From: Candidatus Bathyarchaeia archaeon
Lineage (GTDB): Archaea > Thermoproteota > Bathyarchaeia > Bathyarchaeales > Bathycorpusculaceae
Length of the DNA: 64,000 nucleotides
Direction: 5' to 3'
Assembly (NCBI GenBank): GCA_038883655.1
Contig: JAVZLQ010000002.1
Span: forward strand, 185,625-249,624
Shown: positions 2,225 to 19,566 of the stretch, one piece after another
Position numbering within the stretch: the first letter of the stretch is position 1
Layout: each line of letters begins with the position of its first letter
Position numbers and translations under genes: made by a program
The notes under the pieces: generated by a model
The model's database searches: none
The model's input: the letters and a program-made list of their open reading frames with translations, nothing else
What the model was told of the DNA's origin: nothing

Positions 2225-2638
2225 TCAAAGCCACATGCATTTTGAGTACTCAACGTATTTTTGTACAAGATTTGTGGCATCATGCTCACCCATGCTGGGC
2301 GAATGTCGTGCACATAAATGGAACACCTGCACTCGATTGTCATTGAAAAGTTTGGAAATTTGAGCTCGCAATCCTACATGCCTACTTTCAAGACGCGCGA
2401 ACTGCACAGCGATTTTCTTAAGTCTAGATTCAAGGGTTCTTTTTTGCTCCTCTAATTCTTTGATTTTCTGTAGAAGTTGCTCCTCTGAGTAAGGAGACGC
2501 CATTCCAAGTTGTAGGACCTTCTGAATAAACGTTGTGTCGTTTACGGGAATTTTTAGCTTTTCAGCAAGTTCTAAAATCTCGCAGTTTTGGTCCACATAA
2601 ATTGTTTTCTGATCTTTCTTTAGTTTAATTTTAACCAA
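2225..2638 (-). CDS. coiled-coil hypothetical protein (4th gene of riboswitch operon)
   Basis: 137 aa, heptad-rich EEQLLQKIKELEEQKRTLESRL; GGGTGA SD-like motif upstream; 6 bp from the previous gene. Confidence 0.7.
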   Translation of the reverse strand: MVKIKLKKDQKTIYVDQNCEILELAEKLKIPVNDTTFIQKVLQLGMASPYSEEQLLQKIKELEEQKRTLESRLKKIAVQFARLESRHVGLRAQISKLFNDNRVQVFHLCARHSPSMGEHDATNLVQKYVEYSKCMWL

Positions 2639-2644
2639 AACTAA

Positions 2645-2977
2645 TCACCCTTTTCCATTCAAGAGCGCTTCAAGTTTTTCTTGATCTTCAATTAGCTCCT
2701 CCAGCATTCTTTCATCTCTTTTTATGTCGTTCGGCAGTTCCTTTACTCGCTTCTTTAGATACGTTATTCTCTCTTTTAGAGACAGCGTTTCATGCGCAAG
2801 GATTTGAATTCTGAGCGTGAGTAATCCTTTACGGATTATGCTTTCTGCCTGGTCGCCGAGGTTTTCGTATACCTTTGTCGGAATAAAGATTTTGGCACGT
2901 TTATTTTTAACATTGTTCATTTGCAAGTGAACCTCCCGTAACGCTGATTCCTCTTCTACCGACGATTCTCTGAACAC
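2645..2977 (-). CDS. coiled-coil hypothetical protein (3rd gene; start may be ATG at 2920)
   Basis: KRAKIFIPTKVYENL then a coiled coil; GGAGG upstream of the 2920 ATG; overlaps the upstream gene. Confidence 0.65.
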   Translation of the reverse strand: MFRESSVEEESALREVHLQMNNVKNKRAKIFIPTKVYENLGDQAESIIRKGLLTLRIQILAHETLSLKERITYLKKRVKELPNDIKRDERMLEELIEDQEKLEALLNGKG

Positions 2978-3623
2978 TCCTTAAAGGCACGTCTTCTACA
3001 CTTTTTCGATCCGCTTCTGAGAACTCATAGCTTTGCCGTCTAATATATTCGGAGAGTTCTGATTGTAAACGTTGAAGATTTCTCTCTTCAACCTCAACAA
3101 TGATTTTGATGGTTTCTTGATTATGCGTTGTATTCTTCAGCATTTTAAATAAAAGTGCAAAGTGAGGGATGCAAAGACTTTTGGAATCCTTGAAAAGTTT
3201 GAGAAATTCTTCGCTATGTGAAGATAGCAGTTCAATGATTTTTTTAATGTAGACTTTCATGAAACTGGCTAGATGGGTGCATGCGGGACAGTTGGCTGTT
3301 CGGATGGAAATCTCTCCCTGATTCTTTCTTTGCTTATGCAAGTCATGGAGAAGCCTTTCTATAATACTTTGCGTGATTAGGGCTATTCCGTGACCATCTG
3401 AGCTTCCAGGTTTTGCAGCCGTTATCAGCATTCTGTAAAAGTGATGATTGCAGAATCCTCCACTTTTAACAAGTTTTTCTCTTGCTTTAGAGTCCATTAC
3501 AAGCTCGGAAAGATAAGTGTCTATGTATTTTCTTTCAATTTCATCTTCTAATGCGCAAAGAAAACATTCTGCATCGCTTTTGATTATTCTTTCAATGCGG
3601 GGGTATGTTACGTCAATGCTCAT
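2907..3623 (-). CDS. DUF6062-like protein with two CxxC...CxxH Zn-binding repeats
   Basis: CFLC...GGFCNHH and CPAC...LCIPHF duplicated motifs. Confidence 0.75.
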   Translation of the reverse strand: MSIDVTYPRIERIIKSDAECFLCALEDEIERKYIDTYLSELVMDSKAREKLVKSGGFCNHHFYRMLITAAKPGSSDGHGIALITQSIIERLLHDLHKQRKNQGEISIRTANCPACTHLASFMKVYIKKIIELLSSHSEEFLKLFKDSKSLCIPHFALLFKMLKNTTHNQETIKIIVEVEERNLQRLQSELSEYIRRQSYEFSEADRKSVEDVPLRSVQRIVGRRGISVTGGSLANEQC

Positions 3624-3627
3624 GCAG

Positions 3628-4503
3628 TCACCACTGTTCTCTAATTTTCTTTAATACTGTTACAGCGTATAAGGTGTCTTCAAAAGTGGATATCCCAATG
3701 TCTGATCTTGCAAATCCGCCGTTTGCATTTTGACATTTAAGAACAAAATCAGCTGTCTGGTTTGGATATTTTAAGCGCTTGCCAAGAATATTAAGCGTCA
3801 TTGTTCCGTAGTAAGTATGTTCCATGTATGGAGTGGAACTATTAGGCACCACGGTGAAGCCTCCATAAGGCTTTTCGCATGCCCTAACATAATCGAGAGT
3901 TTCCTTAAGCGACTTAACTGGATAACCAAGATTAAAAAGTGAAGCCACAGCATGATAGGTAGAATTCAAATTCGAATGTCCATAAGCCCCAAAACCACCA
4001 TCAATGTTTTTGAAACTCAGCAACCACTCCGTAATCTTCTCATAGTTAACTTCTACACCGACAATTTTAGCAAGCTCGATTGCCATAAGCGCTAAGAGAA
4101 ATTCCGAGGCAACCTCAACATAAACGTCGATGGTTTCAAATTCGCCTTTGACAACTGGCAGAGAAAGAACAAACTTTTTCAAGTTTTTTCCGTTCGGCTT
4201 TTCACCGCACAGTCTTAAGGCTTTGGCTACATAGTAATGCGAGTAAAGGTTTTCTGCGGCAAAACTGCATAGCCATTCAACAGTCTTTTCAACATTTGGA
4301 AAAGGAGTGTCTAACAAATCCAAAATTGCCAACCCATAATACGTATCTTGGGCGTTAGATTCTGTGCCTTGGCAGAAAGCGTATCCACCATCCTCATTCT
4401 GCCGACTAACAACATAGTTAACTACACGTTTACTCCATAGGTCAGCATGTCGCGTATTTTCCAAAACCGCAAACCGCCCCACTTCAGGCAACCTGTCATT
4501 CAC
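3628..4503 (-). CDS. prenyltransferase/squalene-oxidase (alpha-alpha barrel) repeat protein
   Basis: Repeated QNEDGGY, KNIDGGF, EKPYGGF and QNANGGF motifs, each followed by TYY/TYH-A helices. Confidence 0.85.
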   Translation of the reverse strand: MNDRLPEVGRFAVLENTRHADLWSKRVVNYVVSRQNEDGGYAFCQGTESNAQDTYYGLAILDLLDTPFPNVEKTVEWLCSFAAENLYSHYYVAKALRLCGEKPNGKNLKKFVLSLPVVKGEFETIDVYVEVASEFLLALMAIELAKIVGVEVNYEKITEWLLSFKNIDGGFGAYGHSNLNSTYHAVASLFNLGYPVKSLKETLDYVRACEKPYGGFTVVPNSSTPYMEHTYYGTMTLNILGKRLKYPNQTADFVLKCQNANGGFARSDIGISTFEDTLYAVTVLKKIREQW

Positions 4504-4523
4504 CCATATACTTTTGAAACTGG

Positions 4524-4585
4524 GTAGAAGCTATCAGCCCCTGCACATGCAGAAGCAAGGGCGGTTAAAGGCGAGCTTCATCGCC
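4524..4585 (-). ncRNA. fluoride riboswitch (crcB motif)
   Basis: Minus strand GGCGATGAAGCTCGCC-TTT-AACC-GCCCTTGC..GCAGGGGC-TGATAGCTTCTAC; P1 GGCGA/TCGCC, P2 8-bp stem, pseudoknot GAAGCT/AGCTTC. Confidence 0.92.
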
Positions 4586-4609
4586 TTGAATTTTATAGAG
4601 CCTCAAAGA

Positions 4610-4630
4610 GTAAATATAAACATTTCTTAC
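4610..4630 (-). promoter_or_regulatory. archaeal BRE/TATA promoter of the riboswitch operon
   Basis: Minus strand AAGAAATG-TTTATATT about 30 nt upstream of the riboswitch 5' end. Confidence 0.6.
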
Positions 4631-4728
4631 TAACCTTTAATTTTCTCATTTCCACTCATGTTAGCCATGGAATTTAATTGAAAGCAACAATATTTTAATT
4701 AAATGTTATTAGGAGTAAATGTTAATCT

Positions 4729-5154
4729 ATGGTATGGTGTTGTGGCGTGAAGTTTACTTATACTGGTATCCGCGTCAGGAACTTAGAGCGTTCGGTAGAG
4801 TTTTATACAAAAATAATGGGCATGAAAATAGTGCGTAGGGGTACGATGGAGGCAGGCGGCGTCTATGTGCAGCTAAAAAGCGAAAAATCACCGCAGGTTT
4901 TAGAGCTGAACTATTATCCGCTTGGAACAAAGTTTTATGAGGAATATGTTGCTGGTTCCGAGCTTGACCACTTGGCTTTTTGGTGCAAAGACGTCCGAAA
5001 AGAGTATAGGCGTGTTCTCGCTGGTGGCGCAACTCCGGCTGTCGAGCCATGGGACGAGAATGGTTATACGTTGGCGTTTGTTAGAGATCCTGACGGAATT
5101 TGGATTGAGCTTATAGGGCGAGCCATCAAAAGTAAGCGTAAAGCTGAGCCTTAA
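4729..5154 (+). CDS. VOC/glyoxalase family protein
   Basis: YTGIRVRNLERSVEFY, LELNYY, LDHLAF, FVRDPDGIWIEL. Confidence 0.9.
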   Translation: MVWCCGVKFTYTGIRVRNLERSVEFYTKIMGMKIVRRGTMEAGGVYVQLKSEKSPQVLELNYYPLGTKFYEEYVAGSELDHLAFWCKDVRKEYRRVLAGGATPAVEPWDENGYTLAFVRDPDGIWIELIGRAIKSKRKAEP

Positions 5155-5170
5155 GCATGGTCGGCGTGGG

Positions 5171-5572
5171 ATGGTTGTACCTAAAGGCTTAATCCTACGA
5201 ATAGCCACAAAAGAGTGGGTAAACCAGGTTTTTGATTATGCCATGTATTTTACTAGCGTTCGTAGAAGGATGTCTGCTGGGCAAATTGTAATGTTCGTTC
5301 ATAAGACAGAGTTTGGGGATGCCTTCATAGGCTACGGTGAAATTGGAAACGTGTACGTTGTTGAGGAGCTTTCTGAAGTTGAAAAAGGCTTATGCGAAAA
5401 GTGGAGTTGGAAAAGAGCCATAGAATTCAAATATGTTGTCAAGTTTGAGAAGCCACTACCAATAAGGGAGACGTTCCTCAAAAATTTGAAGGTTAGGGGC
5501 AAAACTTTGCATTGCTTTCCGCTTAGCGAAGAATATTTGAATCAAATAATAGGGAAGGCTGAGAAAAGATAG
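5171..5572 (+). CDS. EVE/PUA-like domain protein
   Basis: GQIVMFVH...FIGYGEI...FEKPLPI pattern. Confidence 0.6.
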   Translation: MVVPKGLILRIATKEWVNQVFDYAMYFTSVRRRMSAGQIVMFVHKTEFGDAFIGYGEIGNVYVVEELSEVEKGLCEKWSWKRAIEFKYVVKFEKPLPIRETFLKNLKVRGKTLHCFPLSEEYLNQIIGKAEKR

Positions 5573-19491: not shown

Positions 19492-19566
19492 GGGCCGGTA
19501 GTTCAGTTTGGTATGAACGCCTGACTTGCACTCAGGAGGTCGCGGGTTCAAATCCCGCCCGGTCCA
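19492..19566 (+). tRNA. tRNA-Ala(TGC), intronless, CCA not encoded
   Basis: Acceptor GGGCCGG/CCGGTCC with G3:U70; anticodon arm CCTGA-CTTGCAC-TCAGG; T-loop GGTTCAAATCC. Confidence 0.96.

Follow-up and report, generated by a model that had tools for sequence, protein, structure and literature searches.

A predicted fluoride riboswitch of the crcB motif and the compact four-gene operon behind it were analyzed in a stretch of 64,000 nucleotides (nt) from Candidatus Bathyarchaeia archaeon (contig JAVZLQ010000002.1), which is referred to as the window. The genome was coded as G000; its assembly comprises 1.42 Mb, with a completeness of 93.25% and a contamination of 6.51%. The four open reading frames (ORFs) lie on the minus strand, begin about 20 nt after the riboswitch, and either overlap or are separated by gaps of 4-6 nt. 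They encode a soluble α/α-toroid protein with prenyltransferase-type repeats, a DUF6062 protein, and two small coiled-coil proteins (CC3 and CC4). The neighbours of the operon are an alcohol dehydrogenase gene that converges on it and ends at 2197, and a glyoxalase-family gene that diverges from it and starts at 4729. Sequence comparison and structure prediction suggest that a real fluoride switch probably controls a conserved, soluble fluoride-response module that does not act by transport.

The original prediction, made from the letters of the window, had described a tightly packed operon of four genes about 20 nt past the aptamer, with a prenyltransferase-repeat protein, a DUF6062-type protein, and two coiled-coil proteins, with no obvious transmembrane helices, and with none of the usual fluoride-regulon families. 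This description was borne out by the ORF spacing, by the Pfam matches (PF00432, PF19538, and weak coiled-coil matches), and by hydropathy. The maximum Kyte-Doolittle mean over 19 residues is 1.71 for the toroid, where it falls on a barrel helix, and 0.89, 0.73, and 0.49 for the other three proteins; no transmembrane-like segment was found by this measure in any of the four. The exporter domains PF02537 and PF00654 were unmatched in the Pfam search of the four proteins, and no transporter gene was found in the immediate flanks of the operon, the window reaching far past both of its ends. The toroid, DUF6062, and CC4 matched none of the PADLOC defence models, and CC3 gave just a coiled-coil-type match (E 0.0066). 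The coordinates of all features are listed in Table 1.

Table 1. Features of the riboswitch operon in the window, and loci elsewhere that join DUF6062 with dynamin-family genes (aa, amino acids; BRE, B recognition element).
Feature	Position	Strand	Basis or remark
Archaeal promoter	4613..4628	-	TATA box TTTATATT at 4620-4613; A-rich BRE-like stretch at 4628-4621 in front
Predicted fluoride riboswitch aptamer (crcB motif, RF01734)	4518..4594	-	51.3 bits, E 2.7e-11
P1	4585-4582 with 4573-4570	-	Rfam alignment
P3	4562-4555 with 4544-4537	-	Rfam alignment
Pseudoknot	4579-4574 with 4532-4527	-	Rfam alignment
Expression platform (proposed)	4472..4566	-	Alternative helix; pair counts in 22 leaders and folds
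Gene 1, soluble α/α-toroid protein, 291 aa	3628..4503	-	PF00432
Gene 2, DUF6062 protein, 238 aa	2907..3623	-	PF19538
Gene 3 (CC3), small coiled-coil protein	2645..2977	-	ORF of 110 aa from GTG 2977
Gene 4 (CC4), small coiled-coil protein	2225..2638	-	137 aa; last operon gene
Dynamin-DUF6062 loci	L096:512-3723; L165:1095-3645; L160:589-3645; L074:3868-6609; L078:2657-7049		

The entire window was searched against Rfam 15 with cmscan. The aptamer matched RF01734 over the full length of the model (positions 1-64 of 64, not truncated), 17 bits over the gathering score of 34 bits. It is the single RF01734 match in G000, and a whole-genome search returned the same 51.3 bits. A crcB-type aptamer had been placed beforehand at 4585-4524, a span bounded exactly by the beginning of P1 and the last part of the pseudoknot, and the covariance model confirmed it with a strong match. 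The cmscan alignment showed that P1 and P3 are intact, and that the strongly conserved core positions all match. The pseudoknot strands are GAAGCU in the P1 loop (consensus GGaGUU) and AGCUUC in the 3' tail (consensus GACUCC). They are fully complementary, with two changes on both sides relative to the Rfam consensus, so the compensatory changes that had been noticed in the original prediction are real in this comparison.

The leader of the window was also aligned with those of 21 related loci (n = 22), and as a control the helix partners were slid by 1-3 columns and the fraction of paired cells was recounted. P1, P3, and the pseudoknot were paired in 99.5% of the cells, compared with 43-60% after sliding. 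P3 contains five pairs with changes on both sides. The pseudoknot was paired in 100% of the cells, yet within the clade it varies only between A and G at one position, and no covariation is seen there. The TATA box (TTTATATT) lies about 31 nt before P1, just upstream of the aptamer as predicted, and is kept in related loci: a GAAATGTTTATAT block occurs about 30 nt ahead of the aptamer in most of the 22 leaders. Transcription would be expected to start near 4590, a few nucleotides before P1. Judged by its sequence features, the aptamer is a genuine fluoride riboswitch.

The stretch covered by the window occurs in runs labelled hot springs metagenome from five studies, one run being a possible source, and the operon is mostly covered by near-identical contigs from another study. 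In 4 of 4 hot-spring runs, the summed contig depth over 4461-4674 (two bins with the aptamer) was about 10-25 times that of the flanking genes; this depth is of DNA contigs, not of expression. The contigs diverge at 4523/4524 and 4585/4586, which are the edges of the aptamer. From this depth peak, many co-resident organisms carry a nearly identical aptamer core. None of the runs with the stretch is recorded as RNA, and two that bear a metatranscriptomic label are flagged as probably DNA. The only other Rfam match above its cut-off in the window is a tRNA at 19492-19566 (plus strand, 70.8 bits).

The leader further contains a possible switching helix. The segment AACCGCCCU (4566-4558), which covers the linker and the 5' strand of P3, can pair with GGGGCGGUU (4480-4472), at about codons 8-10 of gene 1. 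This alternative helix is mutually exclusive with P3, and encloses the 3' strand of the pseudoknot, a Shine-Dalgarno-like GGGUGA (4505-4500), and the start codon. In the 22 leaders, the 9-bp helix was paired in 92.9% of the cells, compared with 35-54% in the slid control; double-sided changes occur at two pairs, in a total of four cells, and three of these cells belong to a single pair and go from C-G to U-A. At least 5 of the 9 pairs form in the minimum-energy folds of 17 of the 22 leaders, and P3 is absent in all 17. The Gly-Arg at the helix site is encoded as GGG-CGG in 18 of the 22 leaders; in the 39 toroid and DUF6062 genes of these loci, GGG makes up 13.7% of the Gly codons and CGG 7.2% of the Arg codons. 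The retention of these rare codons points to selection at the RNA level. In the minimum-energy fold of the window, the 3' strand of the pseudoknot and the CUACCC that follows it pair with GGGUGA.

These data tilt the balance toward a translational ON switch, whose anti-aptamer strand would lie within the coding region. When fluoride is absent, the 5' strand of P3 would pair with codons 8-10 of gene 1, and the 3' strand of the pseudoknot with the ribosome-binding site. Fluoride and Mg2+ would lock P3 and the pseudoknot, and the ribosome-binding site would be freed. Two results weigh against this model. The minimum-energy folds of the remaining 5 of the 22 leaders form P3 (three leaders) or other structures (two leaders). 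Moreover, with the aptamer imposed, the mean unpaired probability of the ribosome-binding site is only 0.42 instead of 0.35, and it goes up in 16 of the 22 leaders; with so modest a change in accessibility, translational control is not demonstrated. If the model is right, the leader would be a compact archaeal example of a riboswitch with the switching strand encoded inside the regulated gene.

The first gene product belongs to the prenyltransferase-repeat family (E 1.6e-26, 93.9 bits against a cut-off of 26.5). Its start codon is probably TTG 4491, which lies 8 nt after the Shine-Dalgarno sequence, rather than GTG 4503, because several orthologues offer only the conserved TTG. The AlphaFold2 (AF2) model is a single barrel of 291 aa, with a mean predicted local distance difference test score (pLDDT) of 89.2 and a predicted template modelling score (pTM) of 0.87. 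The closest structure is the GGTase3 β subunit (6o60_B; E 1.1e-8, TM-score 0.74, 21% identity), and RabGGTase β ranked first in a profile search of the PDB sequences (E 1.4e-13). In a hidden Markov model alignment to RabGGTase β, the Asp and Cys of the LPDVCYSWW motif, Zn ligands of the prenyltransferase β subunit, fall on Pro225 and Glu228 of the toroid; Glu228 is invariant. The third ligand position (His) corresponds to Asp276 by manual repeat alignment. The Asp/Cys/His Zn2+ site of a prenyltransferase β subunit thus appears to be missing. The PPTA α-subunit repeats (PF01239) were found neither in the operon nor in the 93%-complete G000. Since the Zn-ligand positions are replaced and G000 has no PPTA α subunit, the toroid is not a canonical protein prenyltransferase subunit. 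An assignment as a class II terpene (squalene-hopene) cyclase was also considered and rejected: there is no DxDD motif, the protein has a single barrel in place of a two-domain β-γ architecture, and the squalene-cyclase families score far below their cut-offs.

The second gene product matches DUF6062 with an E of 1.6e-34 (119.8 bits against a cut-off of 27). It consists of two repeats, each with a CxxC...CxxH pattern (C20, C23, C58, and H61; C112, C115, C151, and H154). Across 32 sequences, C20, C23, C58, C112, C115, C151, and H154 never vary, and at least 90% retain H61; in 29 distant DUF6062 representatives, the equivalent Cys and His positions do not vary either. The AF2 model (pLDDT 86.4, pTM 0.80) is all-helical and likewise shows two repeats. 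This conservation suggests that DUF6062 holds two Cys3His metal sites, in which the metal is probably zinc. No convincing solved relative was found with Foldseek (best E 0.28), with VIA-align over 48,161 chains (best Z 4.9), or in a profile search of the PDB sequences (best E 0.013), which is not proof of a new fold. A DUF6062 profile built from the 32 sequences and searched against 1.84 billion representative proteins retrieved 4458 proteins at E up to 0.001, of which 2752 reached an E of 1e-10 or lower. A natural fusion protein, P0125 (388 aa), consists of DUF6062 and a tail that matches the '160' family of small proteins described below (E 7e-12) and CC4 (E 1e-4). We infer from this fusion that DUF6062 is physically tied to a CC4-type coiled coil. 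P0126 (400 aa) is a candidate for a similar fusion; the tail was checked in P0125 only. A complex prediction for the toroid and DUF6062 (score 0.00, mark 0.32) weighs neither way on their binding.

The two small proteins gave little to classify. CC3 likely starts at ATG 2920, which would give a protein of about 91 aa as judged by comparison with its orthologues; it has weak coiled-coil matches only in Pfam, and orthologues at the same position in L048, L049, L055, L064, L068, L069, and L071. For CC4, no family was found in Pfam beyond weak coiled-coil matches, and there was no usable match in the ESM Atlas. The C-terminal C-M-W-L of CC4 was considered as a CaaX tail and rejected, because all 4 orthologues that have this tail carry Ser or Leu in place of the Cys. 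The small proteins of the relatives occur as pairs of two types, either CC3/CC4 as in the window or '102/160'. The hhalign comparison relates '102' to '160' (85% probability, E 5.8e-6), and gave only E 0.011 for CC3 with '102' and E 0.41 for CC4 with '160'; a CC4-'160' link exists through the fusion P0125 only. No DNA-binding family was found in 33 small-protein sequences (18 + 15) at E up to 1, and a ribbon-helix-helix identity was dropped on this ground, although it survives within a weak rival explanation discussed below.

Conservation of the operon was studied in two overlapping sets: a set of 61 genomes (G000 and 60 from its genus, family, and order), and a set with one genome per species, in which a pattern scan gave 33 DUF6062 loci. 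In the 61 genomes, DUF6062 occurs in 8 genomes at 9 places. RF01734 matches were found at 17 places, spread over 11 genomes, and 14 of these matches exceed the cut-off. The original prediction stood or fell with a linkage of homologous operons to the riboswitch, and such linkage is nearly always present. At 8 of the 9 DUF6062 places (the exception is G047:C79), the riboswitch lies 0.87-1.33 kb upstream on the same strand, and RF01734 was found upstream in 25 of the 33 species-level loci, two of the 25 being bacterial. The eight misses are L048 and L069, with short upstream sequences (889 and 89 nt); the divergent archaeal loci L073, L075, and L076; L077, which is G047:C79; and L079 and L080, which are partial Chloroflexi matches.

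The gene order in Bathyarchaeia is riboswitch, toroid, DUF6062, and a pair of small coiled-coil proteins, so that the co-occurrence of toroid and DUF6062 genes downstream of crcB riboswitches, seen in the window, recurs across Bathyarchaeia. The toroid and DUF6062 genes are adjacent in every archaeal locus, whether the riboswitch is present or not. In L073 and L075 the pair is kept without the riboswitch, which argues that the two proteins work together. In these two loci (L073:2452-4762 and L075:2454-4765), the pair adjoins a divergently oriented ChrB_N-domain gene and lies near a hemerythrin-PAS gene. Optional extras follow downstream in some relatives: two small proteins with a transporter of the major facilitator superfamily (MFS), Nudix hydrolases, or a second riboswitch with crcB-DUF190.

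Several variants of this arrangement were observed. In G046 and G047, from two other families of the order, the riboswitch and toroid are followed by a conserved protein of about 220 aa, which has no Pfam family and is not DUF6062 (L033:1088-2648, L034:1146-2680, and L035:1283-2671); the toroid gene of L034 is split over three frames, and the second gene of L033 is split in two. In other relatives, the riboswitch or the end of the toroid operon is followed by small proteins (about 94-160 aa, and 107 aa; no family) and an MFS_1 protein of a distinct subfamily, at L036:1221-3191 (G003:C8), L050:4714-6723, L061:5612-7637, L062:4700-6425, and L067:3946-5202. The MFS_1 protein and the two small proteins are a candidate new fluoride-linked transporter set. 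NUDIX hydrolase genes lie in or next to riboswitch operons at L057:2645-3157 and 4710-5249, L060:4727-5218, L061:7704-8171, L062:7010-7474, and L068:6342-6812; one of the two in L057 sits between the riboswitch and the toroid gene.

DUF6062 is also linked to the riboswitch in bacteria. In the Nitrospirota locus L074, a riboswitch is followed by a Na+/H+ exchanger, a gene called USP-like on the basis of its sequence, CrcB, DUF190, another riboswitch that lies 60 nt ahead of DUF6062, DUF6062 itself, and a dynamin-family GTPase of 614 aa. The Sumerlaeota locus L078 has a riboswitch (63 bits), a Na+/H+ exchanger, a DUF6062-like gene, a 170-aa gene without a family, and a dynamin-family GTPase of 617 aa. 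DUF6062 is sporadic in the Nitrospirota, being present in only 2 of 201 sampled genomes.

A metagenomic set was then compiled with 12 DUF6062 representatives as queries, which gave 421 confirmed relatives; the best 80 of the 421 were examined. These loci include several near-duplicates, and many have less than 3 kb of upstream sequence. In 18 of the 80 loci, DUF6062 is preceded by a same-strand RF01734 match, and in one further locus the riboswitch is downstream of DUF6062, ahead of crcB. The gene orders include riboswitch-DUF6062-CrcB (six loci); riboswitch-histidine phosphatase (His_Phos_1)-DUF6062 (four loci); riboswitch-H+-pyrophosphatase...DUF6062-enolase (two loci); and riboswitch-DUF6062-DUF6062 (two loci). 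The families most often found as same-strand neighbours in the 80 loci were MFS_1 (17), CrcB (8), HEAT_2 (8), His_Phos_1 (7), and enolase (7). Isolated observations concern a MutS_V-domain protein after DUF6062 (L141:3806-5773) and cobalamin riboswitches just downstream of it (L122:3776-3905 and L140:3829-3923). The membership of DUF6062 in a fluoride "super-regulon" of archaea and bacteria is firmly supported. Of the previous proposal, an uncharacterised soluble fluoride-stress module in archaea, the module stands, and the restriction to archaea does not, as the Nitrospirota, Sumerlaeota, and metagenomic loci have the same linkage.

The bacterial and metagenomic loci also place DUF6062 beside dynamin-like proteins. 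Dynamin-family GTPases of about 600-670 aa stand next to DUF6062, with a riboswitch ahead in three cases. L096 has the order riboswitch-dynamin-like GTPase-HEAT-DUF6062, and Dynamin_N proteins also flank DUF6062 in L160 and L165, where the L165 protein has a C-terminal partial match to PF19538. In addition, the DUF6062 fold was found inside 803-aa Dynamin_N proteins of Actinomycetota in the ESM Atlas (TM-score 0.71 by query). These findings point to a previously unreported link of fluoride sensing with dynamin-like proteins.

The original prediction had also claimed that a fluoride exporter is absent. This holds for the operon, and for the genome as far as a completeness of 93% shows: no CrcB or Voltage_CLC protein was found in G000, and the MFS proteins of G000 are only 26-27% identical to the riboswitch-linked MFS proteins of the relatives. 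Six of the 61 genomes gave a CrcB match, which exceeds the cut-off in five; among the 8 genomes with DUF6062, only G005 and G025 have CrcB. The operon-bearing genomes G002 (98% complete, with two operon copies) and G032 (97% complete) likewise gave no CrcB or Voltage_CLC. At L059, L060, L072, L050, L061, L067, and L068, the operon lies directly beside an MFS gene or a second riboswitch with crcB-DUF190. The operon accompanies export in some genomes, and is not always a replacement for it.

In the proposed module, the four products would act together in the cytoplasm and mitigate the toxicity of fluoride without transporting it. Joint action is suggested by the conserved adjacency of the genes, by the fusion, and by the persistence of the toroid-DUF6062 pair where the riboswitch is gone. 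DUF6062 would be the core, a helical protein with two Cys3His metal sites coupled to a CC4-type coiled coil. The toroid, with its catalytic zinc site lost, would most likely be a binding or scaffold subunit for an isoprenoid-type or anionic ligand. To our knowledge, all characterised relatives of the toroid bind isoprenoids. Because of this, because DUF6062 neighbours or fuses with dynamin-like GTPases, and because no exporter was found, the module might conceivably act on the isoprenoid membrane or its precursors, limiting the entry of HF or repairing membrane damage; of the specific mechanisms this is the one we favour, though we hold it only tentatively. A broader version, also doubtful at present, is that DUF6062 and its archaeal partners form the core of a widespread, exporter-independent fluoride resistance, a soluble metalloprotein system acting on isoprenoid membranes or on fluoride itself. 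If it were true, the DUF6062 system would rank with Fluc, CLC-F, and FEX among the major families of fluoride resistance.

Several observations weigh against these readings. In G005 and G025 the operon coexists with crcB, and a CLC protein was found in G011. G000 is 93% complete with 6.5% contamination, and an exporter could be missing from the assembly. No riboswitch was found within the available flank in 61 of the 80 metagenomic loci, so DUF6062 is not necessarily specific to fluoride. The search for a dynamin gene in G000 found none, which makes the dynamin link indirect for this organism, and the membrane proposal is an argument from analogy only.

Other explanations of the operon have to be weighed against a soluble, non-transport module. 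The operon might be an accessory of an export defence, with the exporter (Fluc, CLC-F, or a linked MFS protein) present in the organism and missing from the assembly. The incomplete and partly contaminated assembly would allow this, and in the relatives the operon adjoins an MFS gene or a second riboswitch with crcB-DUF190 at the seven loci listed above. However, three genomes that carry the operon (G000, G002, and G032) are without CrcB or Voltage_CLC at 93%, 98%, and 97% completeness, only 6 of the 61 relatives have CrcB, and the immediate flanks of the operon hold no transporter in a window that is long on both sides; an exporter lost from the assembly is rather unlikely. That the RNA is a relic or senses another ligand, and that the operon is unconnected with fluoride, is hardly credible. 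Fluoride binding is deduced here from sequence, but the full-length RF01734 match is 17 bits above a curated cut-off, the helices and the pseudoknot are kept across 22 leaders, and the riboswitch linkage is conserved in two domains of life, beside crcB, enolase, and pyrophosphatase.

The remaining alternatives concern what the proteins do. The toroid and DUF6062 might form a split prenyltransferase-type enzyme, in which the toroid binds the prenyl diphosphate and DUF6062 replaces the α subunit and supplies zinc; its fluoride-induced expression would then modify a protein or a lipid. The toroid is nearest to RabGGTase/GGTase3 β in both sequence and fold, its Zn-ligand positions are replaced while DUF6062 has two invariant Cys3His sites, the toroid and DUF6062 genes lie side by side at all archaeal loci, and G000 has no PPTA α-subunit repeats. 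This enzyme is nevertheless improbable, since DUF6062 occurs widely without the toroid (L074, L078, and the metagenomic loci examined) and shows no similarity to α subunits, and no conserved CaaX-type Cys ends the operon proteins, the Cys of CC4 being Ser or Leu in the orthologues. A regulatory module, in which DUF6062 or the small coiled-coil proteins, or both, would be sensors or transcription factors that extend the fluoride response elsewhere, seems similarly improbable. The N-termini of the small proteins resemble a strand-helix-helix DNA-binding motif with a zipper, by eye only, and Cys/His zinc sites are common in regulators; against this, the 33 small-protein sequences matched no DNA-binding family at E up to 1, searches with DUF6062 gave no family or fold match, and in the metagenomic loci DUF6062 shares riboswitch-controlled operons with crcB, so that another regulator would be superfluous. 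Very improbable is a module that captures fluoride itself, through a hard-metal centre in the carboxylate-lined toroid cavity, or that makes a diffusible organofluorine from an allylic diphosphate. The invariant Glu228 and conserved acidic residues at the zinc-site positions of the toroid would fit it, and the operon is the sole riboswitch target in a genome where no known exporter was found. There is no precedent and no catalytic motif for such a reaction, however; stoichiometric binding is unable to give lasting resistance, and the component shared with bacteria is DUF6062, not the toroid.

Microbial fluoride resistance centres on export (Fluc, CLC-F, and FEX) and on a few overproduced target enzymes. 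A soluble module under a fluoride sensor would add to this picture. The window would represent a case where the sensor is wired to four uncharacterised soluble proteins, in a hot-spring lineage largely without known exporters. DUF6062 becomes a named candidate for a new layer of fluoride defence, and fluoride stress may be connected with isoprenoid-binding folds and with dynamin-like membrane remodelling. No mention of DUF6062 was found in the papers searched; the tables of Baker et al. 2012 may list such genes as hypothetical. No paper joining the fluoride riboswitch with Bathyarchaeota was found in this search, and a search joining it with prenyltransferase gave only one unrelated review.

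Finally, the system was compared with known ones. The RNA shares with the RF01734 class the P1, P3, pseudoknot, and conserved core, a location in the 5' leader with the orientation of the genes it regulates, and an expected ON logic; it differs from the consensus in the pseudoknot, GAAGCU/AGCUUC replacing GGaGUU/GACUCC. In two reports, the best-studied bacterial fluoride riboswitches act via an intrinsic terminator (PMC11077080, PMC8752731), whereas the proposed anti-aptamer strand of the window lies in codons 8-10. The toroid has the α/α-toroid fold and PF00432 repeats of RabGGTase/GGTase3 β (6o60_B), but it is only 291 aa long, carries Pro225/Glu228, has DUF6062 as its partner gene, and has no evident prenylation substrate. 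DUF6062 genes adjoin Dynamin_N genes, and the DUF6062 fold or profile matches part of some bacterial dynamin-like proteins (LeoA/LeoBC-type); in archaea, DUF6062 is instead accompanied by the toroid and two coiled-coil proteins. The fluoride-regulon genes named in two further reports, one of them a 2024 review (PMC11139923; the other is PMC7266159), comprise exporters, Na+/H+ antiporters, pyrophosphatase, HAD enzymes, enolase, and formate hydrogen lyase, and the riboswitch-controlled genes of the window match none of the classes named in PMC11139923. The genes of the window operon are themselves outside the known fluoride classes, and their homologues share operons with crcB, enolase, H+-pyrophosphatase, and Na+/H+ exchangers. 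In comparison with the Fluc/CrcB and CLC-F systems, the regulatory signal is the same, and crcB shares clusters and sometimes operons with DUF6062 elsewhere; the four proteins of the window differ in having neither transmembrane segments nor the PF02537 or PF00654 domains.

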